A stretch of DNA of 34,603 bases from a virus (lineage: Duplodnaviria; Heunggongvirae; Uroviricota; Caudoviricetes). The notes beneath the pieces were generated by a model. The model was not told where the DNA came from, did not search any database, and saw only the letters and a program-made list of their open reading frames with translations. Below, piece by piece: positions 10,077-33,792 of this stretch. The stretch's first letter is position 1. Each line of letters opens with the position of its first letter. Location: the IMG/VR virus record IMGVR_UViG_2671181056_000001. One strand, written 5' to 3'. Position numbers and translations under genes: made by a program.

Positions 10077-10083
10077 GGACGCT

Positions 10084-10824: not shown

Positions 10825-10839
10825 TCCGGAGAGTCAGCG

Positions 10840-11262
10840 ATGTTCCTGAAAACCGAATCATTTGAACATAACGGTGTGACCGTCACGCTTTCTGAACTGT
10901 CAGCCCTGCAGCGTATTGAGCATCTCGACCTGATGAAACGGCAGGCAGAACAGGCGGAGTCAGACAGCAACCGGAAGTTTACTGTGGAAGACGCCATCAG
11001 AACCGGCGCTTTTGTGGTTGCGATGTCCCTGTGGCATAACCATCCGAAGAAGACGCAGATGCCGTCCATGAATGAAGCCGTTAAACAGATTGAGCAGGAA
11101 GTGCTTACCACCTGGCCCACAGAGGCAATTTCTCATGCTGAAAACGTGGTGTACCGGCTGTCCGGTATGTATGAGTTTGTGGTGAATGATGCTCCTGAAC
11201 AGGCAGAGGACGCCGGGCCTGCAGAGCCTGTTTCTGCGGGAAAGTGTTCGACGGTGAGCTGA
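10840..11262 (+). CDS. G: tail assembly chaperone G
   Basis: 140 aa MFLKTESFEHNGVTVTLSELSALQRIEHLDLMKRQAEQ... lambda gpG. Confidence 0.93.
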   Translation: MFLKTESFEHNGVTVTLSELSALQRIEHLDLMKRQAEQAESDSNRKFTVEDAIRTGAFVVAMSLWHNHPKKTQMPSMNEAVKQIEQEVLTTWPTEAISHAENVVYRLSGMYEFVVNDAPEQAEDAGPAEPVSAGKCSTVS

Positions 11263-11678
11263 GTTTTGCCCTGAAACTGGCGCGTGAGATGGGGCGACCC
11301 GACTGGCGCGCCATGCTTGCCGGGATGTCATCCACGGAGTATGCCGACTGGCACCGCTTTTACAGTACCCATTATTTTCATGATGTTCTGCTGGATATGC
11401 ACTTTTCCGGGCTGACGTACACCGTGCTCAGCCTGTTTTTCAGCGATCCGGAGATGCATCCGCTGGATTTCAGTCTGCTGAACCGGCGCGAGGCTGACGA
11501 AGAGCCTGAAGATGATGTGCTGATGCAGAAAGCGGCAGGGCTTGCCGGAGGTGTCCGCTTTGGCCCGGACGGGAATGAAGTTATCCCCGCTTCCCCGGAT
11601 GTGGCGGACATGACGGAGGATGACGTAATGCTGATGACAGTATCAGAAGGGATCGCAGGAGGAGTCCGGTATGGCTGA
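10840..11678 (+). CDS. T: tail assembly chaperone G-T fusion made by programmed -1 frameshift at slippery heptamer G GGA AAG (11238-11244); T-frame ORF 11244-11678
   Basis: Slippery sequence GGGAAAG sits in the XXXYYYZ register of the G frame 18 nt before the G stop; the 144-aa -1 frame ORF matches lambda gpT. Confidence 0.88.
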
Positions 11679-14232: not shown

Positions 14233-14558
14233 AAACCTTCCGCTGGAAAGTGAAACCCGGTATGGATGTGGCTTCGGCCCCTTCTGTAAGAAAGGTGCGC
14301 TTTGGTGATGGCTATTCCCAGCGAGCGCCTGCCGGGCTGAATGCCAACCTGAAAACGTACAGCGTGACGCTTTCTGTCCCCCGTGAGGAGGCCATGGTAC
14401 TGGAGTCGTTTCTGGAAGAGCACGGGGGCTGGAAAGCCTTTCTGTGGACGCCGCCTTATGAGTGGCGGCAGATAAAGGTGACCTGCGCAAAATGGTCGTC
14501 GCGGGTCAGTATGCTGCGTGTTGAGTTCAGCGCAGAGTTTGAACAGGTGGTGAACTGA
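14229..14558 (+). CDS. M: tail tip protein M (copy A, lambda-type)
   Basis: 109 aa MKTFRWKVKPGMDVASAPSVRKVRFGDGYSQRAPAGLNANLKTY... lambda gpM; start overlaps H stop. Confidence 0.93.
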   Translation: MKTFRWKVKPGMDVASAPSVRKVRFGDGYSQRAPAGLNANLKTYSVTLSVPREEAMVLESFLEEHGGWKAFLWTPPYEWRQIKVTCAKWSSRVSMLRVEFSAEFEQVVN

Positions 14559-15256
14559 TGCAGGATATCCGGCAGGAAACACTGAATGAATGCACCCGTG
14601 CGGAGCAGTCGGCCAGCGTGGTGCTCTGGGAAATCGATCTGACAGAGGTCGGTGGAGAACGTTATTTTTTCTGTAATGAGCAGAACGAAAAAGGTGAGCC
14701 GGTCACCTGGCAGGGGCGACAGTATCAGCCGTATCCCATTCAGGGGAGTGGTTTTGAACTGAATGGCAAAGGCACCAGTACGCGCCCCACGCTGATGGTT
14801 TCTAACCTGTACGGTATGGTCACCGGGATGGCGGAAGATCTACAGAGTCTGGTCGGCGGAACGGTGGTCCGGCGTAAGGTTTACGCCCGTTTTCTGGATG
14901 CGGTGAACTTCGTCAACGGAAACAGTGACGCCGATCCGGAGCAGGAGGTGATCAGCCGCTGGCGCATTGAGCAGTGCAGCGAACTGAGCGCGGTGAGTGC
15001 CTCTTTTGTACTGTCCACGCCGACGGAAACAGATGGCGCTGTTTTTCCGGGACGTATCATGCTGGCCAACACCTGCACCTGGACCTATCGCGGCGATGAG
15101 TGCGGTTATCACGGTCCGGCGGTCGCGGATGAATATGACCAGCCAACGTCCGACATCACGAAGGATAAATGCAGCAAATGCCTGAGTGGCTGTAAGTTTC
15201 GCAATAACGTCGGCAACTTTGGCGGCTTCCTTTCCATTAACAAACTTTCGCAGTAA
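14558..15256 (+). CDS. L: tail tip protein L (copy A)
   Basis: 232 aa, lambda gpL-like with conserved cysteine cluster (CxxC...C) near C-terminus. Confidence 0.93.
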   Translation: MQDIRQETLNECTRAEQSASVVLWEIDLTEVGGERYFFCNEQNEKGEPVTWQGRQYQPYPIQGSGFELNGKGTSTRPTLMVSNLYGMVTGMAEDLQSLVGGTVVRRKVYARFLDAVNFVNGNSDADPEQEVISRWRIEQCSELSAVSASFVLSTPTETDGAVFPGRIMLANTCTWTYRGDECGYHGPAVADEYDQPTSDITKDKCSKCLSGCKFRNNVGNFGGFLSINKLSQ

Positions 15257-15261
15257 ATCCC

Positions 15262-16005
15262 ATGACAGAGACAGAATCAGCGATTCTGGCGCACGCCCGG
15301 CGATGTGCTCCAGCGGAGTCGTGCGGCTTCGTGGTAAGAACGCCGGAGGGGGAAAGATATTTCCCCTGCGTGAATATCTCCGGTGAGCCGGAGGCGTATT
15401 TCCGTATGTCGCCGGAAGACTGGCTGCAGGCAGAGATGCAGGGTGAGATTGTGGCACTGGTCCACAGCCACCCCGGTGGTCTGCCCTGGCTGAGTGAGGC
15501 CGACCGGCGGCTGCAGGTGCAGAGTGATTTGCCGTGGTGGCTGGTCTGCCGGGGGGCGATTCACAAGTTCCGCTGTGTGCCACATCTTACCGGGCGGCGC
15601 TTTGAGCACGGGGTGACGGACTGTTACACGCTGTTCCGGGATGCTTACCATCTGGCGGGGATTGAGATGCCGGATTTTCATCGTGAGGATGACTGGTGGC
15701 GTCACGGTCAGAATCTCTATCTGGATAATCTGGAGGCCACAGGGCTGTATCAGGTGCCGTTGTCAGCGGCGCAGCCGGGCGATGTGCTGCTGTGCTGTTT
15801 TGGTTCATCGGTGCCGAATCATGCCGCCATTTACTGTGGTGACGGCGAGCTGCTGCACCATATTCCTGAACAACTGAGCAAACGAGAGAGGTATACCGAC
15901 AAATGGCAGCGACGCACACACTCCCTCTGGCGTTACCGGGCATGGCACGCATCTGCCTTTACGGGGATTTGCAACGATTTGGCCGCCGCATCGACCTTCG
16001 TGTGA
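15262..16005 (+). CDS. K: tail tip assembly protein K, long form with JAB/MPN (HSHPGG...SEAD) and NlpC/P60-like regions (copy A)
   Basis: 247-aa ORF; the C-terminal 199 aa correspond to lambda K as I recall its annotation; the N-terminal extension carries the Glu upstream of the HxH motif. Confidence 0.85.
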   Translation: MTETESAILAHARRCAPAESCGFVVRTPEGERYFPCVNISGEPEAYFRMSPEDWLQAEMQGEIVALVHSHPGGLPWLSEADRRLQVQSDLPWWLVCRGAIHKFRCVPHLTGRRFEHGVTDCYTLFRDAYHLAGIEMPDFHREDDWWRHGQNLYLDNLEATGLYQVPLSAAQPGDVLLCCFGSSVPNHAAIYCGDGELLHHIPEQLSKRERYTDKWQRRTHSLWRYRAWHASAFTGICNDLAAASTFV

Positions 16006-16253
16006 AAACGGGTGCCGAAGCCATCCGGGCGATGGCCACACAGCTCCCTGCGTTTCGTCAGAAGCTGAGCGACGGCTGGTATCAGGTGCGTATTGCCGGG
16101 CAGGATGTTAGCACGTCCGGATTAACGGCACAGTTACATGAGGCTCTGCCTGACGGCGCTGTGATTCATATTGTTCCCAGAGTCGCCGGGGCCAAGTCAG
16201 GTGGTGTATTCCAGATTGTCCTGGGAGCAGCCGCCATTGCCGGATCATTCTTT
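15903..16253 (+). pseudogene. I: tail tip assembly protein I, 5' 117 codons only, cut at N (16254)
   Basis: MAATHTLPLALPGMARICLYGDLQRFGRRIDLRVKTG... matches lambda gpI; overlaps K 3' end by 103 nt as in lambda; homology stops at the N. Confidence 0.85.
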
Positions 16254-16254
16254 N

Positions 16255-16407
16255 CTGATCTCCTGAGATACCACACGTGACCCCACGCGCATTTCACCAT
16301 ACAGAACAGGCATAACATTGCCCTGGGCAACCATGTTATCCAGTGAGGAGAAATAGGTGTTCTGCTTACCGTTATCCGTTGTCTGTGTGCGGGGAGTTCT
16401 GGCTTTC
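16255..16407 (-). pseudogene. I: inverted fragment of gene I 3' region (codons for ...APKARTPRTQTTDNGKQNTYFSSLDNMVAQGNVMPVLYGEMRVGSRVVSQEI)
   Basis: Minus-strand translation matches the lambda gpI C-terminal region; no start or stop of its own; directly abuts the N at 16254. Confidence 0.8.
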
Positions 16408-16833
16408 GGTGGTGGTGCGTCTGCCTCCACGGGGACGGCCATTCAGGCTGCGGCGGCGAACTTCCATTTCGCGACCGGGGGATTTACGGGGACGGGGGGT
16501 AAATATGAACCTGCGGGGATTGTTCATCGCGGGGAGTTTGTCTTCACGAAGGAGGCGACCAGCCGGATTGGTGTCGGCAATCTGTACCGCCTGATGCGGG
16601 GCTATGCGGAAGGTGGTTATGTCGGCGGTGCCGGAAGTCCGGCGCAGATGCGGCGGGCGGAAGGCATTAATTTTAATCAGAACAATCACGTGGTGATTCA
16701 GAACGACGGCCCCAACGGGCGGGCAGGGCCGCAGCTGATGAAAGCGGTGTATGAGATGGCCCGCAAGGGGGCACAGGATGAACTCCGGCTGCAGTTGCGT
16801 GATGGCGGTATGTTATCAGGGAGCGGTGGATGA
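16408..16833 (+). pseudogene. H: 3' fragment of a tape measure gene H (third allele), no 5' part
   Basis: Encodes GGGASASTGTAIQAAAANFHFATGGFTGTGGKYEPAGIVHRGEFVF...GMLSGSGG; many synonymous differences from both full H copies over 16408-16660, then identical to copy B. Confidence 0.8.
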
Positions 16834-17159
16834 AAACCTTTCGCTGGAAAGTGAAGCCGGATATGGAGGTGAACTCGCAGCCATCGGTGCGTGAAGTGCG
16901 TTTTGGTGACGGGTACTCACAGCGTATGGCGGCAGGGCTGAATGCTGACCTGAAAACATACAGGGTGACGCTTTCCGTGACCCGGGAGGAGGCCCGGCAT
17001 CTGGAAGCGTTCCTGGCAGAGCACGGTGGCTGGAAGGCATTTTTGTGGAAGCCACCCTATGCATACCGGCAGATAAAGGTGACCTGTGCCGGGTGGTCTG
17101 CGCGGGTCGGGATGTTGCGCGTTGAGTTCAGCGCGGAGTTTAAGCAGGTGGTGAACTGA
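16830..17159 (+). CDS. M: tail tip protein M (B-type allele, identical to 22981-23310)
   Basis: 109 aa MKTFRWKVKPDMEVNSQPSVREVRFGDGYSQRMAAGLNADLKTYRV... Confidence 0.85.
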   Translation: MKTFRWKVKPDMEVNSQPSVREVRFGDGYSQRMAAGLNADLKTYRVTLSVTREEARHLEAFLAEHGGWKAFLWKPPYAYRQIKVTCAGWSARVGMLRVEFSAEFKQVVN

Positions 17160-17857
17160 TGCAGGATATTCGCGAAGAAAGTCTGAACGAGTCGGTTAAG
17201 TCAGAGCAGTCACCGCGGGTGGTACTCTGGGAAATCGACCTGACGGTACAGGGTGGTGAGCGGTATTTTTTCTGTAATGAGCTGAATGAAAAAGGGGAGC
17301 CGGTCACCTGGCAGGGGCGTAAGTATGAGGCATACCCGATTGACGGCAGCGGCTTTGAGATGAACGGCCGGGGCAGCAGTGCCAGACCGTCGCTGACGGT
17401 GTCCAATCTGTTCGGTCTGGTCACCGGGATGGCGGAAGACCTGCAGAGTCTGGTGGGGGCCACGGTGGTCCGCCGCCGGGTGTATGCCCGTTTTCTGGAT
17501 GCGGTGAATTTCGTTGCGGGCAATCCGGAGGCGGACCCGGAGCAGGAGCTGAGTGACCGCTGGGTGGTGGAGCAGATGTCGCAGCTGACAGCCATGACGG
17601 CCTCGTTTGTGCTGGCTACACCGACCGAGACGGACGGGGCGCTGTTTCCCGGTCGCATCATGCTGGCGAACACCTGTATGTGGGATTACCGGGGAGATGA
17701 ATGCGGGTATAACGGTCCTGCGGTGGCGGATGAGTTCGACAACCCCACCACGGATATCCGTAAGGACAGATGCAGCAAGTGCATGCGCGGGTGTGAACTG
17801 CGCAGGAATGTCGGCAATTTTGGCGGTTTCCTTTCCATTAATAAACTTTCGCAGTAA
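17159..17857 (+). CDS. L: tail tip protein L (B-type allele, identical to 23310-24008)
   Basis: 232 aa, about 80 percent identical to copy A L. Confidence 0.85.
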   Translation: MQDIREESLNESVKSEQSPRVVLWEIDLTVQGGERYFFCNELNEKGEPVTWQGRKYEAYPIDGSGFEMNGRGSSARPSLTVSNLFGLVTGMAEDLQSLVGATVVRRRVYARFLDAVNFVAGNPEADPEQELSDRWVVEQMSQLTAMTASFVLATPTETDGALFPGRIMLANTCMWDYRGDECGYNGPAVADEFDNPTTDIRKDRCSKCMRGCELRRNVGNFGGFLSINKLSQ

Positions 17858-17867
17858 ATCCCGGTTT

Positions 17868-18540
17868 ATGACACAGACTGAATCAGCGATTCTGGCACAT
17901 GCCCGGCGGTGTGCGCCTGCGGAGTCGTGCGGCTTCGTGATAAGCACGCCGGAGGGGGAGCGGTATATCCCTTGTGTGAATATTTCCGCAGAGCCGGAGG
18001 CGTATTTTCGTATCGCACCGGAAGACTGGCTGCGGGCAGAGATGCAGGGGGAGATTGTGGCACTGGTCCACAGTCATCCCGGTGGGCTGCCCTGGCTGAG
18101 CGAGGCTGACCGGCGGTTGCAGATAAAAAGCGCACTGCCCTGGTGGTTGGTCTGCCGGGGTGACATTCACAAATTCCGCTGTGTGCCACATCTGACAGGA
18201 CGGCGCTTTGAGCACGGGGTGACGGACTGTTACACGCTGTTCCGGGATGCTTATCATCTGGCGGGGACTGAAATGCCGGATTTTCATCGCGAGGATGACT
18301 GGTGGCGCAACGGTCAGAACCTTTACCTGGACAATATGGCGGTCACCGGCTTTTACCGGGTGCCCCTGTCCTCTGCACAGGCGGGCGATATTCTGCTGTG
18401 CTGCTTTGGTGCTTCGGTACCGAACCATGCCGCCATTTACTGCGGCAACGGTGAGCTGCTTCACCATCTGCCTGAACAACTGAGTAAACGGGAGAGGTAT
18501 TCCGAAAAATGGCAACGACGAACGCATTCAGTCTGGCGTC
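17868..18540 (+). pseudogene. K: tail tip assembly protein K (B-type), 3' end missing, cut at N (18541)
   Basis: Identical to 24019-24691 then broken at the N; the six-frame ORF continues artificially into U-derived sequence. Confidence 0.8.
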
Positions 18541-18541
18541 N

Positions 18542-18828
18542 CGGCAATTGCCGTTTATCTCACCGGCGCTGAATACACGGGCGAAGAGCTGGACAGCGAT
18601 ACCTGGCAGGCGGAGCTGCATATTGAAGTTTTCCTGCCTGCTCAGGTGCCGGATTCAGAGCTGGATTCGTGGATGGAGTCCCGGATTTATCCGGTGATGA
18701 GCGATATCCCGGCACTGTCAGATTTGATCACCAGTATGGTGGCCAGCGGCTATGACTACCGGCGCGACGATGATGCGGGCCTGTGGAGTTCAGCCGATCT
18801 GACTTATGTCATTATCTATGAAATGTGA
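18542..18828 (+). pseudogene. U: 3' fragment of tail terminator gene U (starts mid-gene right after N)
   Basis: Identical to 9790-10076; encodes ...[93 protein letters not shown]. Confidence 0.85.
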
Positions 18829-18835
18829 GGACGCT

Positions 18836-19576
18836 ATGCCTGTACCAAATCCTACAATGCCGGTGAAAGGTGCCGGGACCACCCTGTGGGTTTATAAGGG
18901 GAGCGGTGACCCTTATGCGAACCCGCTTTCAGACGTTGACTGGTCGCGTCTGGCAAAAGTTAAAGACCTGACGCCCGGCGAACTGACCGCTGAGTCCTAT
19001 GACGACAGCTATCTCGATGATGAAGATGCAGACTGGACTGCGACCGGGCAGGGGCAGAAATCTGCCGGAGATACCAGCTTCACGCTGGCGTGGATGCCCG
19101 GAGAGCAGGGGCAGCAGGCGCTGCTGGCGTGGTTTAATGAAGGTGATACCCGTGCCTATAAAATCCGCTTCCCGAACGGCACGGTCGATGTGTTCCGTGG
19201 CTGGGGCAGCAGTATCGGTAAGGCGGTGACGGCGAAGGAGGTGATTACCCGCACGGTGAAGGTCACCAATGTGGGACGTCCGTCGATGGCAGAAGATCGC
19301 AGCACGGTGACGGCGACGACCGGCATGACGGTGACACCCGCCAGTGCTTCCGTAGTGAAAGGGCAGAGCACCACGCTGACCGTGGCATTCCAGCCGGATG
19401 GCGCAACCGACAAGAGCTTCCGTGCGGTGTCTGCGGATAAAACAAAAGCCACCGTGTCGGTCAGTGGTATGACCATCACCGTGAAAGGTGTTGCTGCAGG
19501 CAAGGTCAACATTCCGGTCGTATCTGGTAATGGTGAGTTTGCTGCGGTTGCAGAAATCAACGTCACCGCCAGTTAA
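18836..19576 (+). CDS. V: major tail tube protein V (second copy)
   Basis: Offset 8752 from copy A; one amino-acid difference (RGWGSS vs RGWVSS). Confidence 0.9.
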
Positions 19577-19591
19577 TCCGGAGAGTCAGCG

Positions 19592-20014
19592 ATGTTCCTG
19601 AAAACCGAATCATTTGAACATAACGGTGTGACCGTCACGCTTTCTGAACTGTCAGCCCTGCAGCGTATTGAGCATCTCGACCTGATGAAACGGCAGGCAG
19701 AACAGGCGGAGTCAGACAGCAACCGGAAGTTTACTGTGGAAGACGCCATCAGAACCGGCGCTTTTGTGGTTGCGATGTCCCTGTGGCATAACCATCCGAA
19801 GAAGACGCAGATGCCGTCCATGAATGAAGCCGTTAAACAGATTGAGCAGGAAGTGCTTACCACCTGGCCCACAGAGGCAATTTCTCATGCTGAAAACGTG
19901 GTGTACCGGCTGTCCGGTATGTATGAGTTTGTGGTGAATGATGCTCCTGAACAGGCAGAGGACGCCGGGCCTGCAGAGCCTGTTTCTGCGGGAAAGTGTT
20001 CGACGGTGAGCTGA
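19592..20014 (+). CDS. G: tail assembly chaperone G (second copy)
   Basis: Identical to 10840-11262. Confidence 0.9.
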   Translation: MFLKTESFEHNGVTVTLSELSALQRIEHLDLMKRQAEQAESDSNRKFTVEDAIRTGAFVVAMSLWHNHPKKTQMPSMNEAVKQIEQEVLTTWPTEAISHAENVVYRLSGMYEFVVNDAPEQAEDAGPAEPVSAGKCSTVS

Positions 20015-20430
20015 GTTTTGCCCTGAAACTGGCGCGTGAGATGGGGCGACCCGACTGGCGCGCCATGCTTGCCGGGATGTCATCCACGGAGTATGCCGAC
20101 TGGCACCGCTTTTACAGTACCCATTATTTTCATGATGTTCTGCTGGATATGCACTTTTCCGGGCTGACGTACACCGTGCTCAGCCTGTTTTTCAGCGATC
20201 CGGAGATGCATCCGCTGGATTTCAGTCTGCTGAACCGGCGCGAGGCTGACGAAGAGCCTGAAGATGATGTGCTGATGCAGAAAGCGGCAGGGCTTGCCGG
20301 AGGTGTCCGCTTTGGCCCGGACGGGAATGAAGTTATCCCCGCTTCCCCGGATGTGGCGGACATGACGGAGGATGACGTAATGCTGATGACAGTATCAGAA
20401 GGGATCGCAGGAGGAGTCCGGTATGGCTGA
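19592..20430 (+). CDS. T: tail assembly chaperone G-T frameshift fusion (second copy; slippery site 19990-19996)
   Basis: Identical to copy A, including the GGGAAAG heptamer. Confidence 0.85.
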
Positions 20431-22984
20431 ACCGGTAGGCGATCTGGTCGTTGATTTGAGTCTGGATGCGGCCAGATTTGACGAGCAGATGGCCAGAGTC
20501 AGGCGTCATTTTTCCGGTACGGAAAGTGATGCGAAAAAAACAGCGGCAGTCGTTGAACAGTCGCTGAGCCGACAGGCGCTGGCTGCACAGAAAGCGGGGA
20601 TTTCCGTCGGGCAGTATAAAGCCGCCATGCGTATGCTGCCTGCACAGTTCACCGACGTGGCCACGCAGCTTGCAGGGGGGCAGAATCCCTGGCTGATCCT
20701 GCTGCAACAGGGTGGTCAGGTTAAGGACTCCTTCGGCGGGATGATCCCCATGTTCAGGGGGCTTGCCGGCGCGATCACCCTGCCGATGGTGGGGGCCACC
20801 TCGCTGGCGGTGGCGACCGGTGCGCTGGCGTATGCCTGGTATCAGGGCAACTCAACCCTGTCCGATTTCAACAAAACGCTGGTCCTTTCCGGTAATCAGG
20901 CGGGACTGACGGCAGATCGTATGCTGGTCCTGTCCAGAGCCGGGCAGGCGGCAGGGCTGACGTTTAACCAGACCAGCGAGTCACTCAGCGCACTGGTTAA
21001 GGCGGGGGTAAGCGGTGAGGCTCAGATTGCGTCCATCAGCCAGAGTGTGGCGCGTTTCTCCTATGCATCCGGCGTGGAGGTGGACAAGGTCGCTGAAGCC
21101 TTCGGGAAGCTGACCACAGACCCGACGTCGGGGCTGACGGCGATGGCACGCCAGTTCCATAACGTGACGGCGGAGCAGATTGCGTATGTTGCTCAGTTGC
21201 AGCGTTCCGGCGATGAAGCCGGGGCATTGCAGGCGGCGAACGAGGCCGCAACGAAAGGGTTTGATGACCAGACCCGCCGCCTGAAAGAGAACATGGGCAC
21301 GCTGGAGACCTGGGCAGACAGGACTGCACGTGCATTCAAATCCATGTGGGATGCGGTGCTGGATATTGGTCGTCCTGATACCGCGCAGGAGATGCTGATT
21401 AAGGCAGAGGCTGCGTTTAAGAAAGCAGACGACATCTGGAATCTGCGCAAGGATGATTATTTCGTTAACGATGAAGCACGGGCGCGTTACTGGGATGATC
21501 GTGAAAAAAAACGCCTGGAGCGGGATGCAGCCCAAAAGAGGGTAGATCAACAGCGTCAACAGGACAAAAATGCGCAGCAGCAGAGCGATACCGAAGCGTC
21601 ACGGCTGAAATATACCGAAGAGGCGCAGAAGGCTTACGAACGGCTGCAGACGCCGCTGGAGAAATATACCGCCCGTCAGGAAGAACTGAACAAGGCACTG
21701 AAAGACGGAAAAATCCTGCAGGCAGATTACAACACGCTGATGGCGGCGGCGAAAAAGGATTATGAAGCGACGCTGAAAAAGCCGAAACAGTCCGGCGTGA
21801 AGGTGTATGCGGGCGATCGTCAGGAAGACAGTGCTCATGCGGCCCTGCTGACGCTTCAGGCAGAACTCCGGACGCTGGAGAAGCATGCCGGAGCGAATGA
21901 GAAAATCAGCCAGCAGCGCCGGGATTTGTGGAAGGCAGAAAGTCAGTTCGCGGTACTGGAGGAGGCGGCACAACGTCGCCAGCTGTCCGCACAGGAGAAA
22001 TCCCTGCTGGCGCATAAAGACGAGACGCTGGAGTACAAACGCCAGCTGGCTGCACTTGGTGACAAGGTTACGTATCAGGAGCACCTGAATGCGCTGGCGC
22101 AGCAGGCGGATAAATTCGCACAGCAGCAACGGGCAAAACGGGCAGCCATTGATGCGAAAAACCTGGGGCTGACTGACCGGCAGGCAGCGCGGGAAGCCAC
22201 GGAACAGCGCCTGAAGGAACAGTATGGCGATAATCCTCTGGCGCTGAATAACGTCATGTCAGAGCAGAAAAAGACCTGGGCGGCTGAAGACCAGCTTCGC
22301 GGGAGCTGGATGGCAGGCCTGAAGTCCGGCTGGAGTGAGTGGGAAGAGAGCGCCACGGACAGTATGTCACAGGTTAAAAGTGCAGCCACGCAGACCTTTG
22401 ATGGTATTGCACAGAATATGGCGGCGATGCTGACCGGCAGTGAACAGAACTGGCGCAGCTTCACCCGCTCCGTGCTGTCCATGATGACAGAAATTCTGCT
22501 TAAGCAGGCAATGGTGGGGATTGTCGGGAGTATCGGCAGGGCCATTGGCGGGGCTGTTGGTGGCGGCGCATCCGCGTCAGGTGGTACAGCCATTCAGGCC
22601 GCTGCGGTGAAATTCCATTTTGCAACCGGGGGATTTACGGGAACCGGCGGCAAATATGAGCCAGCGGGGATTGTTCACCGTGGTGAATTTGTCTTCACGA
22701 AGGAGGCAACCAGCCGGATTGGCGTGGGGAATCTCTACCGGCTGATGCGCGGCTATGCGGAAGGTGGTTATGTGGGCGGTGCCGGAAGTCCGGCGCAGAT
22801 GCGGCGGGCTGAAGGCATTAATTTTAATCAGAACAATCACGTGGTGATTCAGAACGACGGCCCCAACGGGCGGGCAGGGCCGCAGCTGATGAAAGCGGTG
22901 TATGAGATGGCCCGCAAGGGGGCACAGGATGAACTCCGGCTGCAGTTGCGTGATGGCGGTATGTTATCAGGGAGCGGTGGATGA
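20423..22984 (+). CDS. H: tail tape measure protein H (copy B, divergent last ~40 codons)
   Basis: 853 aa; identical to copy A except two substitutions until codon ~813, then a different C-terminus (PNGRAGPQLMKAVYEMARKGAQDELRLQLRDGGMLSGSGG). Confidence 0.93.
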   Translation: MAEPVGDLVVDLSLDAARFDEQMARVRRHFSGTESDAKKTAAVVEQSLSRQALAAQKAGISVGQYKAAMRMLPAQFTDVATQLAGGQNPWLILLQQGGQVKDSFGGMIPMFRGLAGAITLPMVGATSLAVATGALAYAWYQGNSTLSDFNKTLVLSGNQAGLTADRMLVLSRAGQAAGLTFNQTSESLSALVKAGVSGEAQIASISQSVARFSYASGVEVDKVAEAFGKLTTDPTSGLTAMARQFHNVTAEQIAYVAQLQRSGDEAGALQAANEAATKGFDDQTRRLKENMGTLETWADRTARAFKSMWDAVLDIGRPDTAQEMLIKAEAAFKKADDIWNLRKDDYFVNDEARARYWDDREKKRLERDAAQKRVDQQRQQDKNAQQQSDTEASRLKYTEEAQKAYERLQTPLEKYTARQEELNKALKDGKILQADYNTLMAAAKKDYEATLKKPKQSGVKVYAGDRQEDSAHAALLTLQAELRTLEKHAGANEKISQQRRDLWKAESQFAVLEEAAQRRQLSAQEKSLLAHKDETLEYKRQLAALGDKVTYQEHLNALAQQADKFAQQQRAKRAAIDAKNLGLTDRQAAREATEQRLKEQYGDNPLALNNVMSEQKKTWAAEDQLRGSWMAGLKSGWSEWEESATDSMSQVKSAATQTFDGIAQNMAAMLTGSEQNWRSFTRSVLSMMTEILLKQAMVGIVGSIGRAIGGAVGGGASASGGTAIQAAAVKFHFATGGFTGTGGKYEPAGIVHRGEFVFTKEATSRIGVGNLYRLMRGYAEGGYVGGAGSPAQMRRAEGINFNQNNHVVIQNDGPNGRAGPQLMKAVYEMARKGAQDELRLQLRDGGMLSGSGG

Positions 22985-23310
22985 AAACCTTTCGCTGGAA
23001 AGTGAAGCCGGATATGGAGGTGAACTCGCAGCCATCGGTGCGTGAAGTGCGTTTTGGTGACGGGTACTCACAGCGTATGGCGGCAGGGCTGAATGCTGAC
23101 CTGAAAACATACAGGGTGACGCTTTCCGTGACCCGGGAGGAGGCCCGGCATCTGGAAGCGTTCCTGGCAGAGCACGGTGGCTGGAAGGCATTTTTGTGGA
23201 AGCCACCCTATGCATACCGGCAGATAAAGGTGACCTGTGCCGGGTGGTCTGCGCGGGTCGGGATGTTGCGCGTTGAGTTCAGCGCGGAGTTTAAGCAGGT
23301 GGTGAACTGA
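22981..23310 (+). CDS. M: tail tip protein M (B-type)
   Basis: 109 aa; start overlaps H stop. Confidence 0.9.
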   Translation: MKTFRWKVKPDMEVNSQPSVREVRFGDGYSQRMAAGLNADLKTYRVTLSVTREEARHLEAFLAEHGGWKAFLWKPPYAYRQIKVTCAGWSARVGMLRVEFSAEFKQVVN

Positions 23311-24008
23311 TGCAGGATATTCGCGAAGAAAGTCTGAACGAGTCGGTTAAGTCAGAGCAGTCACCGCGGGTGGTACTCTGGGAAATCGACCTGACGGTAC
23401 AGGGTGGTGAGCGGTATTTTTTCTGTAATGAGCTGAATGAAAAAGGGGAGCCGGTCACCTGGCAGGGGCGTAAGTATGAGGCATACCCGATTGACGGCAG
23501 CGGCTTTGAGATGAACGGCCGGGGCAGCAGTGCCAGACCGTCGCTGACGGTGTCCAATCTGTTCGGTCTGGTCACCGGGATGGCGGAAGACCTGCAGAGT
23601 CTGGTGGGGGCCACGGTGGTCCGCCGCCGGGTGTATGCCCGTTTTCTGGATGCGGTGAATTTCGTTGCGGGCAATCCGGAGGCGGACCCGGAGCAGGAGC
23701 TGAGTGACCGCTGGGTGGTGGAGCAGATGTCGCAGCTGACAGCCATGACGGCCTCGTTTGTGCTGGCTACACCGACCGAGACGGACGGGGCGCTGTTTCC
23801 CGGTCGCATCATGCTGGCGAACACCTGTATGTGGGATTACCGGGGAGATGAATGCGGGTATAACGGTCCTGCGGTGGCGGATGAGTTCGACAACCCCACC
23901 ACGGATATCCGTAAGGACAGATGCAGCAAGTGCATGCGCGGGTGTGAACTGCGCAGGAATGTCGGCAATTTTGGCGGTTTCCTTTCCATTAATAAACTTT
24001 CGCAGTAA
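23310..24008 (+). CDS. L: tail tip protein L (B-type)
   Basis: 232 aa. Confidence 0.9.
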   Translation: MQDIREESLNESVKSEQSPRVVLWEIDLTVQGGERYFFCNELNEKGEPVTWQGRKYEAYPIDGSGFEMNGRGSSARPSLTVSNLFGLVTGMAEDLQSLVGATVVRRRVYARFLDAVNFVAGNPEADPEQELSDRWVVEQMSQLTAMTASFVLATPTETDGALFPGRIMLANTCMWDYRGDECGYNGPAVADEFDNPTTDIRKDRCSKCMRGCELRRNVGNFGGFLSINKLSQ

Positions 24009-24018
24009 ATCCCGGTTT

Positions 24019-24762
24019 ATGACACAGACTGAATCAGCGATTCTGGCACATGCCCGGCGGTGTGCGCCTGCGGAGTCGTGCGGCTTCGTGATAAGCACGC
24101 CGGAGGGGGAGCGGTATATCCCTTGTGTGAATATTTCCGCAGAGCCGGAGGCGTATTTTCGTATCGCACCGGAAGACTGGCTGCGGGCAGAGATGCAGGG
24201 GGAGATTGTGGCACTGGTCCACAGTCATCCCGGTGGGCTGCCCTGGCTGAGCGAGGCTGACCGGCGGTTGCAGATAAAAAGCGCACTGCCCTGGTGGTTG
24301 GTCTGCCGGGGTGACATTCACAAATTCCGCTGTGTGCCACATCTGACAGGACGGCGCTTTGAGCACGGGGTGACGGACTGTTACACGCTGTTCCGGGATG
24401 CTTATCATCTGGCGGGGACTGAAATGCCGGATTTTCATCGCGAGGATGACTGGTGGCGCAACGGTCAGAACCTTTACCTGGACAATATGGCGGTCACCGG
24501 CTTTTACCGGGTGCCCCTGTCCTCTGCACAGGCGGGCGATATTCTGCTGTGCTGCTTTGGTGCTTCGGTACCGAACCATGCCGCCATTTACTGCGGCAAC
24601 GGTGAGCTGCTTCACCATCTGCCTGAACAACTGAGTAAACGGGAGAGGTATTCCGAAAAATGGCAACGACGAACGCATTCAGTCTGGCGTCACCGCCACT
24701 GGCACGCATCTGCCTTCACGGGGATTTACAACGATTTGGCCGCCGCCTCAGCCTGTATGTGA
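24019..24762 (+). CDS. K: tail tip assembly protein K (B-type, JAB/MPN plus NlpC/P60-like)
   Basis: 247 aa from MTQTESAILAHARRCAPAESCGFVISTPEGERYIPCVN...; HSHPGGLPWLSEAD motif present. Confidence 0.88.
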   Translation: MTQTESAILAHARRCAPAESCGFVISTPEGERYIPCVNISAEPEAYFRIAPEDWLRAEMQGEIVALVHSHPGGLPWLSEADRRLQIKSALPWWLVCRGDIHKFRCVPHLTGRRFEHGVTDCYTLFRDAYHLAGTEMPDFHREDDWWRNGQNLYLDNMAVTGFYRVPLSSAQAGDILLCCFGASVPNHAAIYCGNGELLHHLPEQLSKRERYSEKWQRRTHSVWRHRHWHASAFTGIYNDLAAASACM

Positions 24763-25340
24763 ACACGGCAGCGGAAGCCATTCGCGCCCTGTCGATGCAG
24801 ATGCCGGGCTTTCGCCGTCAGATGAACGAAGGCTGGTACCAGATACGTATTGCCGGTTATGACACGGCACCGGAGGCGGTGTACGCCCGTCTTCACGAAC
24901 AGCTGGGTGAGGGAACGGTCATCCACATTGTGCCGCGACTGGCCGGGGCCGGAAAGGGTGGACTGCAGATTGTGCTGGGGGCGGCAGCCATCGTGGGCTC
25001 TTTCTTCACTGCCGGGGCATCAATGGCGTTATGGGGTTCAGCCCTGGCAGCCGGTGGTTTTTCTGCCACCACGATGCTGTTTTCACTTGGAGCCAGCATG
25101 ATTCTGGGCGGTGTGGCCCAGATGCTGGCCCCGAAGGCAAAAACACCGGATTACCGCGCAACGGATAACGGCAGACAGAACACGTACTTTTCCTCACTGG
25201 ATAACATGATTGCCCAGGGGAACCCGATGCCGGTGCCTTACGGGGAAATGCTGGTTGGCTCCCGCCGTATATCCCAGGACATCAGCACCCGTGATGAAGG
25301 CGGGGGCGGAAAGGTCGTGGTTATCGGGCGGCAGGGGTAA
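24660..25340 (+). CDS. I: tail tip assembly protein I (B-type, full length)
   Basis: 226 aa MATTNAFSLASPPLARICLHGDLQRFGRRLSLYVNTAAEAIRA...; overlaps K 3' end by 103 nt as in lambda. Confidence 0.9.
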   Translation: MATTNAFSLASPPLARICLHGDLQRFGRRLSLYVNTAAEAIRALSMQMPGFRRQMNEGWYQIRIAGYDTAPEAVYARLHEQLGEGTVIHIVPRLAGAGKGGLQIVLGAAAIVGSFFTAGASMALWGSALAAGGFSATTMLFSLGASMILGGVAQMLAPKAKTPDYRATDNGRQNTYFSSLDNMIAQGNPMPVPYGEMLVGSRRISQDISTRDEGGGGKVVVIGRQG

Positions 25341-25385
25341 AAAGAATAAAAAAATCCCGCAGTGATCGCGGACAGGAACTGCGGG
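25341..25385 (-). terminator. intrinsic terminator on minus strand (stem CCCGCAG/CTGCGGG 25356-25385, then U-tract read from 25355 down to 25341)
   Basis: Minus-strand read: CCCGCAG-16 nt loop-CTGCGGG followed by ATTTTTTTATTCTTT. Confidence 0.5.
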
Positions 25386-25444
25386 AGAGTTACGAAGATT
25401 AAGTGTAAGGAATTATTCTTATATCACGACAAAAAAATTAACGC
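25341..25444 (-). ncRNA. candidate ~100-nt small RNA between promoter (25451-25478) and terminator, transcribed opposite to the tail operon
   Basis: Sequence-only prediction: promoter plus terminator bracket a segment with no ATG-initiated ORF; no homology check possible here. Confidence 0.3.
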
Positions 25445-25450
25445 AGAGAA

Positions 25451-25478
25451 ATTATACGCGCCACAGTCAGTTTGTGAA
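25451..25478 (-). promoter_or_regulatory. predicted sigma70 promoter on minus strand: TTCACA - 16 nt - TATAAT
   Basis: Minus-strand read TTCACAaactgactgtggcgcgTATAAT (-10 = complement of 25451-25456, -35 = complement of 25473-25478). Confidence 0.5.
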
Positions 25479-25550
25479 AATGTGAAGATATTCAGAATTT
25501 TTATGCCATTACCGGTTTTAACCAACAGGATTATCGGTGGGCATGAAAGA

Positions 25551-25580
25551 AAACCCCGGTATCTGCTGATACCGGGGTTT
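25551..25580. terminator. perfect 13-bp stem hairpin AAACCCCGGTATC-TGCT-GATACCGGGGTTT with partial T-tracts on both sides (possible bidirectional terminator)
   Basis: Exact inverted repeat with 4-nt loop; flanked by CTCTTT (plus strand) and TTCTTTC (minus strand). Confidence 0.5.
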
Positions 25581-25683
25581 CTCTTTAGCATGGCAGAAAT
25601 GTGTTTCATGCTTTTCGGGCGAAGGATATCCGACTTCTGTACGGAATGGCAAGTGGCGGTTAATTTATTCAGGGGAAGGCTGT

Positions 25684-28600
25684 ATGGGAAAAGGTGGCGG
25701 TAAGGCACACACGCCTCGTGAGGCGAAGGATAATCTCAAATCCACGCAGATGATGAGCGTGATTGATGCGATTGGTGAGGGACTGATAGAAGGTCCGGTG
25801 AAGGGACTGCAGAGTATCCTGGTGAACAAAACCCCGCTGACGGACACGGACGGTAATCCCGTGATACACGGTGTGACGGCGGTCTGACGCGCCGGGGAGC
25901 AGGAGCAGACACCACCGGAAGGCTTTGAGTCCTCCGGTGCTGAAACCGGACTGGGCGTGGAAGTGACGAAGGCAAAACCGGTGACGCGCACCATTACGTC
26001 CGCGAACATTGACCGCCTGCGGGTTACCTTCGGGGTGCAGTCACTGGTGCAGACCACGTCAAAGGGTGACCGAAACCCGACATCCGTCCGCCTGCTGATT
26101 CAGTTACAGCGTAACGGTAACTGGGTGACAGAAAAGGATGTCACCATTAACGGCAAGACCACCTCGCAGTTTCTGGCGTCGGTGATTCTGGATAATCTGC
26201 CTCCCCGTCCTTTTAACATCCGGATGGTCCGGGAGACAGCGGACAGCACCACGGACCAGCTGCAGAATAAGACGCTGTGGTCGTCATACACCGAAATCAT
26301 CGATGTGAAACAGTGCTACCCGAACACGGCCATTGTGGGGCTGCAGGTGGATGCGGAGCAGTTCGGCGGCCAGCAGATGACGGTGAACTACCATATCCGC
26401 GGTCGCATCATCCAGGTGCCGTCAAACTATGACCCGGAAAAACGCACGTACAGTGGTATCTGGGACGGCAGCCTGAAACCGGCATACAGCAACAATCCGG
26501 CCTGGTGTCTGTGGGACATGCTGACTCACCCGCGCTACGGCATGGGAAAACGTCTGGGGGCGGCGGATGTGGACAAGTGGGCGCTGTATGCCATCGGGCA
26601 GTACTGCGACCAGACGGTCCCGGATAGTTTCGGGGAGACCGAGCCGCGGATGACCTTCAATGCGTACCTGGCACAACAGCGTAAGGCATGGGACGTGCTC
26701 AGTGATTTCTGCTCGGCGATGCGCTGTATGCCGGTATGGAACGGCCAGACGCTGACGTTTGTTCAGGACCGCCCGTCGGATGTGGTGTGGCCGTACACCA
26801 ACAGCGATGTGGTGGTGGATGATAACGGCGTGGGTTTCCGCTACAGCTTCAGTGCCCTGAAGGACCGGCACACGGCGGTGGAGGTGAATTATACCGACCC
26901 GCAGAACGGCTGGCAGACCTCCACGGAACTGGTGGAAGACCCGGAAGCCATACTGCGCTACGGACGCAACCTGCTGAAGATGGACGCGTTCGGCTGTACC
27001 AGCCGCGGTCAGGCCCACCGTGCCGGACTGTGGGTGATAAAGACCGAACTGCTGGAAACGCAGACGGTGGATTTCACGCTCGGGTCTCAGGGGCTGCGGC
27101 ACACACCCGGTGACATCATTGAAATCTGTGATAACGACTATGCCGGGACCCTGACCGGCGGACGTGTCCTGTCCATTGATGCTGCCACCCGCACTCTGAC
27201 GCTGGACCGTGAAGTGACACTTCCGGAGACCGGTGCCGCCACGGTGAACCTGATTAACGGCAGCGGTAAGCCGGTGAGTGTGGACATCACCGAACACCCC
27301 GCGCCGGACCGGATACAGGTCAGTACCCTGCCTGATGGTGTGGAGACATACGGGGTGTGGGGACTCTCCCTGCCGTCACTGCGCCGTCGCCTGTTCCGCT
27401 GTGTCTCCGTCCGGGAAAACACGGACGGCACCTTTGCCATCACGGCGGTGCAGCACGTACTGGAAAAAGAAGCCATCGTGGATAACGGTGCCCGCTTTGA
27501 GCCGCAGTCAGGTTCCCTGAACAGCGTCATCCCACCGGCAGTGCAGCACCTGACGGCCAGTATCTGGCGCAGGCGAAATGGGACACGCCGCGGGTGGTGA
27601 AGGGTGTGCGCTTCAGTCTGCGCCTGACCAGTGGTAAGGGAACGGATGCCAGACTGGTGACCACCGCCATCACCGCAGACACGGAGCACCGTTTCAGCGG
27701 CCTGCCGCTCGGGGAATACACCCTGACGGTGCGGGCGATAAACAGCTATGGCCAGCAGGGTGAACCTGCCACCACCACCTTCCGGATTGCCGCACCGGCA
27801 GCACCGTCGCGGATTGAGCTGACGCCGGGCTATTTTCAGATAACCGCAACGCCGCATCTTGCCGTTTATGACCCGACGGTACAGTTTGAGTTCTGGTTCT
27901 CGGAAAAGCGGATTGCGGATATCAGGCAGGTTGAAACCACAGCACGCTATCTTGGCACGGCGCTGTACTGGATAGCCGCCAGTATCAATATCAAACCGGG
28001 CCATGATTATTACTTTTATATCCGCAGTGTGAACACCGTTGGCAAATCGGCATTCGTGGAGGCTGTCGGTCGGGCGAGCGATGATGCGGAAGGTTACCTG
28101 GATTTTTTCAAAGGAGAGATAGGGAAAACACATCTGGCTCAGGAGCTGTGGACGCAGATTGATAACGGTCAGCTTGCGCCTGACCTGGCTGAAATCAGGA
28201 CGTCCATTACGGATGTCAGCAATGAAATCACGCAGACTGTCAATAAGAAACTGAAAGACCAGAGTGCGGCAATCCAGCAGATACAGAAGGTTCAGGTTGA
28301 TACAAATAATAATCTGAACAGCATGTGGGCTGTGAAGCTGCAACAGATGAAGGACGGACGCCTTTATATTGCGGGTATCGGTGCCGGTATTGAGAATACG
28401 CCAGCAGGAATGCAGAGTCAGGTGCTGCTGGCGGCAGACAGGATTGCGATGATTAATCCTGCGAATGGCAACACAAAGCCGATGTTTGTTGGTCAGGGCG
28501 ATCAGATATTCATGAACGACGTGTTCCTGAAACGCCTGACGGCTCCCACCATTACCAGCGGCGGTAATCCTCCGGCATTTTCCCTGACACCGGACGGAAA

Positions 28601-29135
28601 ACTGACCGCTAAAAATGCAGATATCAGTGGCAGTGTGAATGCGAACGCCGGGACGCTCAACAATGTCACAATTAATGAGAACTGTCAGATTAAGGGGAAA
28701 CTGTCAGCCAACCAGATTGAAGGCGATATAGTCAAAACAGTGGGTAAGGCTTTTCCGCGGGACTCCCGGGCACCGGAGCGGTGGCCATCAGGGACCATTA
28801 CCGTCAGGATTTATGACGATCAGCCTTTTGACAGGCAAATTGTTATTCCGGCGGTGGCATTCAGCGGCGCTAAACATGAGCGGGAGAATAACGATATTTA
28901 TTCGTCATGCCGCCTGATAGTACGGAAAAACGGTGCTGAAATTTATAACCGTACCGCGCTGGATAATACGCTGATTTACAGTGGTGTTATTGATATGCCA
29001 GCTGGTCGCGGCCACATGACGCTGGAGTTTTCGGTGTCAGCATGGCTGGTGAATAACTGGTATCCCACAGCAAGTATCAGCGATTTGCTGGTTGTGGTGA
29101 TGAAGAAAGCCACCGCAGGCATCAGTATCAGCTGA
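25684..29135 (+). pseudogene. J: tail tip/host-specificity protein J, disrupted by an in-frame TGA (25885-25887) and a frameshift near 27555-27600
   Basis: Three consecutive ORFs (25684-25887, 25957-27600, 27594-29135) together match lambda gpJ (1132 aa) from MGKG..HTPREAKDNLKSTQ to the C-terminus; the stop replaces the F codon of the VFRAGEQEQTPPEGF motif. Confidence 0.85.
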
Positions 29136-29202: not shown

Positions 29203-30000
29203 ATGCGTAAAGTTTGTGCAGCCATTTTGTCCGCAGCCATTTGCCTGGCCGTATCCGGTGCGCCTGCATGGGCGTCTGAACATCAGTCCACACTGAGCGC
29301 GGGGTATCTTCATGCCCGTACGAACGCTCCCGGCAGCGATAATCTGAACGGGATTAACGTGAAATACCGTTATGAGTTTACGGATACGCTGGGGCTGGTG
29401 ACGTCATTCAGCTATGCAGGAGACAAGAATCGCCAGCTGACCCGTTACAGCGATACCCGCTGGCATGAAGATTCCGTGCGTAACCGCTGGTTCAGCGNNN
29501 NNNNNNNNNATGCCCGTACGAACGCTCCCGGCAGCGATAATCTGAACGGGATTAACGTGAAATACCGTTATGAGTTTACGGACGCGCTGGGGCTGATTAC
29601 GTCCTTCAGTTATGCCAATGCTGAGGATGAGCAAAAAACGCACTACAGCGATACCCGCTGGCATGAAGATTCCGTGCGTAACCGCTGGTTCAGCGTGATG
29701 GCGGGGCCGTCTGTGCGCGTGAATGAATGGTTCAGCGCGTATGCGATGGTGGGTGTGGCTTACAGCCGTGTGTCGACTTTCTCCGGGGATTATCTCCGCG
29801 TAACTGACAACAAGGGGAAAACGCACGATGTGCTGACCGGAAGTGATGACGGTCGCCACAGCAACACGTCTCTGGCGTGGGGGGCTGGCGTGCAGTTTAA
29901 CCCGACCGAATCCGTGACCATTGACCTTGCTTATGAAGGTTCCGGTAGTGGTGACTGGCGAACGGATGCATTTATTGTTGGTATCGGATACCGTATCTGA
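29203..30000 (+). CDS. lom: outer membrane protein Lom (Ail/OmpX family); as assembled contains an N12 gap (29498-29509) and a duplicated 186-bp segment
   Basis: MRKVCAAILSAAICLAVSGAPAWASEHQSTLSAGYLH... and the C-terminal half match lambda Lom; true length probably ~199 aa. Confidence 0.85.
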   Translation: MRKVCAAILSAAICLAVSGAPAWASEHQSTLSAGYLHARTNAPGSDNLNGINVKYRYEFTDTLGLVTSFSYAGDKNRQLTRYSDTRWHEDSVRNRWFSXXXXXARTNAPGSDNLNGINVKYRYEFTDALGLITSFSYANAEDEQKTHYSDTRWHEDSVRNRWFSVMAGPSVRVNEWFSAYAMVGVAYSRVSTFSGDYLRVTDNKGKTHDVLTGSDDGRHSNTSLAWGAGVQFNPTESVTIDLAYEGSGSGDWRTDAFIVGIGYRI

Positions 30001-33100: not shown

Positions 33101-33211
33101 CACTCTGTTGCGATTGGTTCACATGGACACACCATCACCGTTAACGCTGCTGGTAACGCGGAAAACACCGTCAAAAACATCGCATTTAACTATATTGTGA
33201 GGCTCGCATAA
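30152..33211 (+). CDS. stf: side tail fibre protein Stf (1019 aa)
   Basis: N-terminus [28 protein letters not shown]... and C-terminus ...[29 protein letters not shown] match lambda Stf; Ala/Ser-rich repeat region; two tandem copies of the phage tail-fibre repeat (GI(V/I)[11 protein letters not shown](S/T)[11 protein letters not shown]). Confidence 0.92.
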
Positions 33212-33792
33212 TGGCATTCAGAATGAGTGAACAAGCACGGACCATAAAAATTTATAACCTGCTGGCCGGAACTAATGAATTTATTGGTGAAGGTGACGCA
33301 TATATTCCGCCTCATACAGGTCTGCCTGCAAACAGTACCGATATTGCACCGCCAGATATTCCGGCTGGTTTCGTGGCTGTTTTCAACAGTGATGAGTCAT
33401 CGTGGCATCTCGTTGAAGATCATCGGGGTAAAACGGTTTATGACGTGGCTTCCGGCGACGCGTTATTTATTTCTGAACTCGGCTCATTACCGGAAAATGT
33501 CACCTGGTTATCCCCGGAAGGGGAGTTTCAGAAGTGGAACGGCACAGCCTGGGTGAAGGATACGGAAGCAGAAAAACTGTTCCGGATCCGGGAGGCGGAA
33601 GAAACAAAAAACAGCCTGATGCAGGTAGCCAGTGAGCATATAGCGCCGCTTCAGGATGCTGTGGATCTGGAGATCGCAACGGAGAAAGAAACCTTGTTGC
33701 TGGAAGCTTGGAAAAAGTATCGGGTGTTGCTGAACCGTGTTGATACATCAACTGCACCGGATATTGAATGGCCAGTAGCACCTATAGGGTAA
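33211..33792 (+). CDS. tfa: tail fibre assembly protein Tfa
   Basis: 193 aa [44 protein letters not shown]... lambda Tfa; start overlaps stf stop (TAATGG). Confidence 0.93.

Follow-up and report, generated by a model that had tools for sequence, protein, structure and literature searches.

What occupies the space between tail genes I and J in the DNA of IMG/VR virus record IMGVR_UViG_2671181056_000001? In phage λ the two genes are 60 bp apart (I end 15444, J start 15505), which agrees with the ~60 bp quoted in the initial annotation of this DNA. In the 34,603-nt stretch analyzed here, which we refer to as the window, they are separated by 343 bp (25341-25683). The initial annotation proposed that this spacer holds a self-contained leftward transcription unit encoding a regulatory small RNA (sRNA), carried as a moron opposite to the late operon, and noted that phage-borne sRNAs are found at such positions in pathogenic Escherichia coli. 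A described match does exist, PasB of enteropathogenic E. coli (EPEC) strain E2348/69, and the proposed unit is supported by homology to validated sRNAs at the same locus. We conclude that the window very probably carries a PasB-family sRNA gene, here called allele W, as a moron at the I-J junction of a defective lambdoid prophage, with an RNA that presumably acts in trans.

PasB (pathogenicity-associated sRNA B) is an 83-nt RNA encoded by prophage PP6 of EPEC O127:H6 E2348/69, on the minus strand at NC_011601.1 1466343->1466261 (Table S6, PMC8550237). The first 20 nt of its Northern probe, AATCCCGCAGTGATCGCGGAGCT (PMC8550237), are identical to the plus strand of the window at 25352-25371; this identity places the RNA on the minus strand, with the probe spanning the terminator. 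In E2348/69, the PP6 homologues of I and J flank PasB. The two loci therefore share the same I-J intergenic slot and the same orientation against the late operon. They also have an identical TTCACA-16-TATAAT promoter, the same terminator stem and U7 tail, and IS009 in the flank. In the covariance search that the initial annotation had called for, model R1, built from 11 E2348-type alleles and zero W-type sequences, matched 25444-25348 on the minus strand over its full length (model positions 1-98 of 98; 58 bits, E 1.2e-12). This is the sole significant match in the window, the runner-up scoring 8 bits. Because the match is full-length and the I-J locus is the same, the W locus is, as judged from sequence and position, a PasB homologue at the orthologous position. 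The elements of the gene are as follows.

25481-25496, minus strand: upstream motif TCTGA-N6-TCACA (read on the sRNA strand), centered at about -44.5, conserved, putative activator site
25478-25451, minus strand: sigma-70 promoter TTCACA-16-TATAAT (-35 at 25478-25473, -10 at 25456-25451), 11 of 12 consensus matches
25348-25444, minus strand: predicted primary transcript of PasB-family sRNA allele W, 97 nt, matched by model R1, no open reading frame (ORF)
25394-25412 (read 25412->25394), minus strand: core UUCCUUACACUUAAUCUUC, conserved across alleles, candidate seed
25348-25386, minus strand: intrinsic terminator and presumed Hfq-binding module; 9-bp stem 25386-25378/25363-25355, 14-nt loop, U7 at 25354-25348

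The unit has the features that the initial annotation described. The near-consensus sigma-70 promoter reported at 25478-25451 is there. A promoter scan of 24600-26400 returned three promoter-like sites, against 1.2 +/- 1.0 in shuffled sequences, and two of the three are this same site with alternative -35 hexamers. We placed the transcription start at 25444, 7 nt after the -10 hexamer. The RNA of about 100 nt lacking an ATG-initiated ORF was likewise confirmed: the 97 nt from 25444 to 25348 contain no AUG, and since their GUG and UUG triplets reach stops within 2-3 codons, no ORF exceeds 3 codons. The GC-stem and U-tract terminator abutting the I stop codon proved to be a 9-bp stem whose arms (25355-25363 and 25378-25386) are 100% complementary, followed by U7, with a predicted folding energy of -15.7 kcal/mol (z = -3.7 against shuffles). 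The ends first given for the RNA, about 25443 and 25341, lie within a few bases of the model match.

W is nevertheless not PasB as published. The two are 74% identical over the full transcript, 67% upstream of the terminator and 61% over the equivalent of the mature 83 nt, and the longest exact word that they have in common is 25 nt. The terminator loop of W is 5 nt longer than that of PasB, and the module upstream of the W gene is of a long type, whereas that of PasB is of a short type. Published PasB variants are near-identical, with "only a few nucleotide differences" (bioRxiv 10.64898/2026.05.13.724894); W, at 61% in the mature body, falls short of that. W is a divergent PasB allele outside the published variant set, although the kind of element is already known.

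The distribution of the two alleles also differs. Among 5,426 complete E. coli genomes, the 97-nt W transcript was found in 800 (613 records at >=99% identity), and the sRNA locus of the window is 100% identical to that of many genomes. Megablast with the 83-nt PasB found 956 of the 5,426, all at >=90% identity and none of W type. With the 343-bp spacer as query, which detects any allele, the number rose to 1,662. The carriers of W are for the most part extraintestinal and other non-EPEC genomes, together with Stx2c- and Stx1a-converting phages, and W-like alleles also occur in Escherichia albertii. When one genome per species was scanned with a 19-nt terminator word, E. albertii was the only real match of 21, the others being in unrelated GC-rich genomes and looking like chance. 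The published PasB census, run with a word size of 28 and requiring 75% coverage, reported 1,158 hits (Zhu, Shabalina and Storz, bioRxiv 10.64898/2026.05.13.724894). It probably did not reach W. The family appears to be about twice as widespread as reported (1,662 any-allele genomes against 956 via PasB) and far more diverse. If W is active, some 800 of the 5,426 complete genomes, many of them clinical extraintestinal isolates, carry an unannotated regulator.

Annotation pipelines miss the gene. The Rfam search suggested by the initial annotation was run. At gathering threshold, the whole window yielded IS009 (33554-33752) as the sole match and no family at the sRNA locus; PasB is not in Rfam. 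A permissive Rfam scan of 25200-25800 gave nothing above 20 bits, with all matches far below the family thresholds. RefSeq annotates nothing at the W locus in any genome listed, and a full-text literature search for the terminator sequence found no paper. A covariance model of the family would annotate a conserved noncoding gene that current pipelines and Rfam overlook.

Is W likely to be expressed? The evidence for PasB comprises a Northern band, RIL-seq (ligation and sequencing of interacting RNAs) and Hfq dependence (PMC8550237). In the absence of hfq its level changes by -6.8 and -2.4 on the log2 scale. In RIL-seq it has 37 partners, of which 30 are coding sequences or 5' untranslated regions and none is an sRNA; it is the second RNA in ~100% of its chimeras, and ~99% of the partner fragments are from the core genome (all PMC8550237).

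A second source of evidence comes from enterohemorrhagic E. coli (EHEC) O157:H7 Sakai, in which EcOnc22 (Sp15), EcOnc23 (Sp14) and EcOnc24 (Sp11) were described as homologous sites crosslinked to Hfq in a UV crosslinking and cDNA analysis (CRAC) study (Table S2, Tree et al. 2014, PMC4104026). EcOnc22 runs at ~85 nt on a Northern blot and is destabilized without hfq (PMC4104026). All three positions fall inside I-J spacers of NC_002695.2, and the PasB model finds a gene in each of these prophages:

NC_002695.2 2902836-2902926, opposite to the late genes: PasB-family gene of Sp15, 71 bits
NC_002695.2 2676767-2676857, opposite to the late genes: PasB-family gene of Sp14, 71 bits
NC_002695.2 2166817-2166907, opposite to the late genes: PasB-family gene of Sp11, 71 bits

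The three copies are identical to each other. The published EcOnc peaks lie 122-124 nt lower than these genes. AgvB1 served for calibration: its Rfam match in the current record is at 1941920-1941981, against a published peak at 1941783-1941835. The older Sakai genome version was presumably 128 bp shorter than the current record, and once about +128 is added, every EcOnc peak falls within its PasB-family gene. From this we infer that EcOnc22-24 belong to the PasB family, a link made in neither PasB paper (PMC8550237; bioRxiv 10.64898/2026.05.13.724894) and one that joins independent EPEC and EHEC data sets on a single family. The Sakai sequence is a third allele, ~74% identical to both W and PasB. 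It shares with W the terminator stem, the AUCUUC core and the TCTGA-N6-TCACA motif, but has AATAAT as its -10 hexamer and no recognizable -35, where W has TTCACA-16-TATAAT. Two mutually divergent alleles are therefore expressed and Hfq-dependent, and because W has a better promoter than the Sakai allele and an identical terminator, expression of W is, by analogy, likely.

We propose the following course of events. In the lysogen, host RNA polymerase would start at about 25444 from the sigma-70 promoter and proceed leftward against the silent late operon. The hairpin and U7 would stop transcription and release a 97-nt RNA, which might be trimmed to ~82 nt, with a 5' end at ~25429. Such trimming is suggested by the EPEC species, which is 83 nt long and has its 5' end 22 nt after the -10 hexamer; ~25429 is the equivalent position in the window. 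The terminator hairpin and U-tail would load the W RNA onto Hfq. The CU-rich, single-stranded core UUCCUUACACUUAAUCUUC could then pair in trans with host core-genome mRNAs and alter their translation or stability. Pairing would probably be at or near ribosome-binding sites, since UCCUU is complementary to the AAGGA of the Shine-Dalgarno sequence. Placement of the seed here agrees with Zhu, Shabalina and Storz 2026, who put the PasB seed just upstream of the terminator (bioRxiv 10.64898/2026.05.13.724894). In per-base unpaired probabilities from the folding of W, the 3' half of the core, UUAAUCUUC, is predicted to be unpaired and its AAUCUUC part mostly so, and the 5' half, UUCCUUACAC, is partly paired in both W folds (probability ~0.1-0.3). 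When exact complements of the W 5' part were sought elsewhere in the window, none exceeded 9 nt. Since W and PasB differ at ~40% of mature-body positions, their target sets probably overlap only in part, as far as sequence can predict. In the lytic cycle, transcription of the late genes would converge on the sRNA promoter and occlude it, which would make the RNA a product of lysogeny. RNAs of the PasB type would be one route by which prophages rewire host expression through Hfq.

Control of the gene may involve the motif TCTGA-N6-TCACA, which precedes 199 of the 205 PasB-like genes fetched and is kept where the -35 and -10 hexamers diverge, examples being types L175 and L178 and Sakai. From its sequence it is a possible activator site with half-sites resembling those of CRP, 9 of 10 core positions matching. 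At class II CRP promoters the site is centered at -41.5. The center of the motif, at about -44.5, speaks against CRP, and we keep this assignment as a lead. PasB is more abundant in static overnight lysogeny broth than under a virulence-activating condition (Pearl Mizrahi et al. 2021, PMC8550237), an observation on the side of the CRP assignment.

How constant is the gene across the family? Two sets of IMG/VR loci were compared: 120 found via the terminator word, and 80 chosen by the I protein alone, all at >=97% identity. The sRNA gene lies directly 3' of I, on the opposite strand, in 80 of the 80 I-selected loci. Together the two sets contain at least five types of sRNA body: W, E2348/PasB-2, a form with a 5-nt deletion (del5), L175, and L178/Sakai. 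Of 24 distinct allele rows one is a contig-end fragment, and in the 23 that are full-length the terminator stem CCCGCAG/CUGCGGG with its U-tail is invariant, as is the motif AUCUUC. The core takes the form [A/G]AUCUUC with UCC.U a few bases upstream, and UCC.U....U.AUCUU is the only pattern upstream of the terminator that is common to all alleles. The first six transcribed bases, GCGUUA, are almost always kept, and the terminator loop occurs in at least six versions that vary in length and sequence.

Several points weigh against the case for W as a trans-acting PasB-family sRNA. W is known from sequence alone, the expression evidence belonging to PasB and EcOnc22, and the assignment of EcOnc22-24 depends on a coordinate shift taken from a single landmark, AgvB1. 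The targets of PasB have not been individually validated and no seed was derived from its RIL-seq targets, which leaves the pairing mode to be inferred. The 5' end of PasB is 22 nt past the -10 hexamer rather than ~7 nt; either the EPEC end arises by processing or the published end is approximate, and the mature length of W is accordingly uncertain. A covariation test found no covarying base pair in the terminator stem, a null result that is uninformative for a stem that never varies; what supports the structure is its folding energy and the fact that the stem stays constant while the loop varies. Finally, the sRNA body has a diversity of 0.003-0.005 among loci of one allele class, where I and J have 0.06-0.13 at their third codon positions, but grouping loci by allele biases the former downward, and the low spacer diversity may reflect either selective constraint or a recent spread of the cassette by recombination.

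We advance a broader reading of the locus tentatively and at somewhat less than even odds. The I-J junction may hold a variable-seed cassette, in which a constant scaffold (the activator-like motif, the promoter, the terminator and the Hfq module) is combined with five or more bodies, 25-40% different from one another, which recombination exchanges among prophages; W would have a host regulon distinct from that of PasB. W itself is found in ~15% of complete E. coli genomes, mostly extraintestinal, and on Stx1a and Stx2c phages. If this reading is true, the published view of PasB as the least variable and oldest Pas sRNA is an artefact of the 28-nt BLAST word size.

Since the gene is always antisense to the late operon, at the I-J junction in 80 of 80 loci, and its transcription converges with that of the late genes, it might instead act in cis. 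In lytic growth the RNA would pair perfectly with the I-J stretch of the polycistronic late mRNA, or convergent transcription would interfere, and either would tune J and the tail genes downstream of it or direct RNase III cleavage. However, the sRNA overlaps no coding sequence and no ribosome-binding site. In the window 240 nt separate its start from that of J, and in E2348/69 the 5' end of the 83-nt PasB is 153 nt from J. Moreover, PasB is detected in the lysogen, where the late mRNA is absent; its RIL-seq partner fragments are almost wholly of the core genome, and it occupies the second position in chimeras, as trans-acting sRNAs do. In the window, J is a pseudogene but the sRNA locus is intact. 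We consider cis action improbable.

Prophage anti-sRNAs, or sponges, are documented in EHEC, and AgvB and AsxR (Rfam RF02702 and RF02703) have the same architecture: like the PasB family they are short prophage RNAs in which the 3' module is conserved and the 5' part varies, and they share Hfq dependence with PasB. By this analogy the constant terminator of W would serve as the Hfq module and its variable body would sequester a core sRNA. However, AgvB and AsxR act on sRNAs, and the RIL-seq summary lists no sRNA among the 37 partners of PasB. The Rfam AgvB and AsxR models do not match the window, there is no sequence match to W, and the two RNAs are sited in the moron site downstream of PR' and Q rather than between tail genes. 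A sponge function is very unlikely. Indeed, no Rfam 15 family, IsrK, DicF, AgvB and AsxR included, reaches its gathering threshold at the W locus. Another prophage-borne RNA of extraintestinal E. coli, sRNA-17 of E. coli K1 RS218 (PMC7719688), was rejected as the identity of W: its locus and sequence are different, and a search of the window for its first bases, tolerating 3 mismatches, found nothing.

That the locus is an inert relic, a promoter- and terminator-like pair retained by linkage in a decaying prophage and giving no consequential transcript, is hardly credible either, for although the prophage is defective, with J broken by a nonsense codon and a frame shift in its reading, the assembly of the window is disordered, W is a sequence-only allele and the gene can lose its promoter, as in the sodC-type loci described below, the W promoter matches 11 of 12 consensus positions, the terminator is intact, W is identical in hundreds of genomes (the 613 records at >=99%) and two other alleles, each ~74% identical to it, are expressed and Hfq-dependent. 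None of these rivals fits the RIL-seq profile and the conservation as well as the trans-acting reading.

What of the rest of the spacer and its flanks? The features outside the sRNA gene are these.

24660-25340, plus strand: I, tail assembly gene (ORF; Pfam PF06805 Lambda_tail_I, E 6.3e-17; the identical region of ATCC 25922 is annotated as tail assembly protein)
25338-25340, plus strand: I stop codon, 7 nt from the sRNA 3' end
25505-25683, no strand assigned: long upstream module, noncoding, one of a pair of alternatives that separate the sRNA promoter from J
25551-25580 (25551-25563/25568-25580), no strand assigned: 13-bp hairpin with a 4-nt loop, 100% complementary, flanked on both strands by an A-run and a T-rich run
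25684-25887, plus strand: start of J, tail tip gene, ended by a TGG->TGA nonsense codon at 25885-25887

The initial annotation treated the 343 bp as a single insertion, and this did not hold. The spacer consists of two modules, the sRNA gene with its promoter (~25348-25500) and an exchangeable upstream module (~25505-25683), and the combinations swap among loci. The comparison of I-J regions that had been suggested as a check on a discrete mobile module thus upholds the sRNA moron and not the one-piece insertion. Counted from the promoter anchor up to where J begins, the long module is 195 nt; the short one is 92-93 nt. Each of the two is found with each of the alleles W, E and del5. Diversity of the long module within an allele class is 0.0015-0.0017, making it as invariant as the sRNA, against the 0.06-0.13 seen in I and J at third codon positions. 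No ORF in it is supported, and its only promoter-like site on the minus strand is a weak one, TTGCCA-18-TATCCT, at 25652-25623.

The perfect 13-bp hairpin reported within this module is indeed present (folding z = -5.1 on the plus strand and -6.6 on the minus strand). It had been suggested to stop incoming antisense transcription ahead of the sRNA promoter, and that role is not clearly supported, as λ, which has no sRNA gene at I-J, and the short module both have counterparts. In λ a stable hairpin with a T-run lies on the late strand just upstream of J, although the terminator scan did not list it. The short module has its own hairpin, with a compensatory change (GGCACC/GGTGCC versus GGCATCC/GGATGCC), which the scan called as a late-strand terminator in E2348/69 and Sakai. 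Because these hairpins stand in the same place and read as hairpin plus T-run on the late (plus) strand, the 13-bp hairpin is more simply explained as the local version of a late-operon I-J junction hairpin than as a shield for the sRNA promoter. The scan lists it as a terminator on neither strand, and a 47-bp deletion at locus L074 removes it.

That the segment is noncoding, as first claimed, was borne out. For the spacer ORFs 25362-25703 (plus), 25424-25708 (minus) and 25518-25652 (minus), which traverse the hairpin and the sRNA gene, Pfam gave nothing and PHROG gave no match with an E below 0.09. A single phage record annotates a 66-aa hypothetical protein in the spacer. With no family support for these ORFs and no RefSeq annotation there, we rejected a protein-coding reading.

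The junction does accept protein-coding cargo elsewhere. In six of the 80 I-selected loci, a minus-strand gene for a Cu,Zn superoxide dismutase (Pfam PF00080, E 5e-32) accompanies a W-like sRNA and replaces its promoter:

L183 2372-2941, minus strand: sodC (PF00080), at the I-J junction on the sRNA strand; also in L180, L203, L205, L210 and L213

The presence of sodC supports the moron idea, with the junction as a cargo slot. In these six loci sodC terminates in its own hairpin ~50 nt upstream of the W-like sRNA body, and there the RNA may possibly derive from the sodC 3' untranslated region or be a relic.

Downstream, J of the window differs from the annotated gpJ of ATCC 25922 by two substitutions in alignment and is otherwise identical. 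It is a pseudogene, with the nonsense mutation at codon 68 relative to the intact ATCC 25922 gpJ and a frame break near 27597, and its domains are divided among three ORFs (25684-25887, 25957-27600 and 27594-29135). The prophage is therefore unable to make tails, and the sRNA locus is nonetheless intact.

Upstream, the tail genes are repeated in disorder. The stretch 9790-16099 matches 18542-24856 (93% overall, and 100% in at least the stretches that were sampled, 9790-10089 and 13800-14099), 16401-18545 matches 22552-24696 (98%), and 13800-15933 matches 16401-18539 (80%). An ambiguous base 'n' at 16254 marks a break in the first I copy, after which I sequence follows in reverse complement; this junction occurs in one piece in no complete E. 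coli genome. The disorder of 9790-24856 has the look of an artefact in which similar prophages were mis-joined during draft assembly, and not of a biological arrangement.

Further along, IS009 (Rfam RF02111; 33554-33752, plus strand, 218 bits) is a typical neighbor of PasB (Zhu et al., bioRxiv 10.64898/2026.05.13.724894). In the window it lies wholly inside ORF 33211-33792, which encodes a tail fiber assembly protein (PF02413, E 5e-44), and this 'sRNA' family may simply be coding sequence. Within an outer membrane gene of the Ail/Lom family (29203-30000, PF06316), 186 nt are directly repeated, 29312-29497/29510-29695, at 87% identity.

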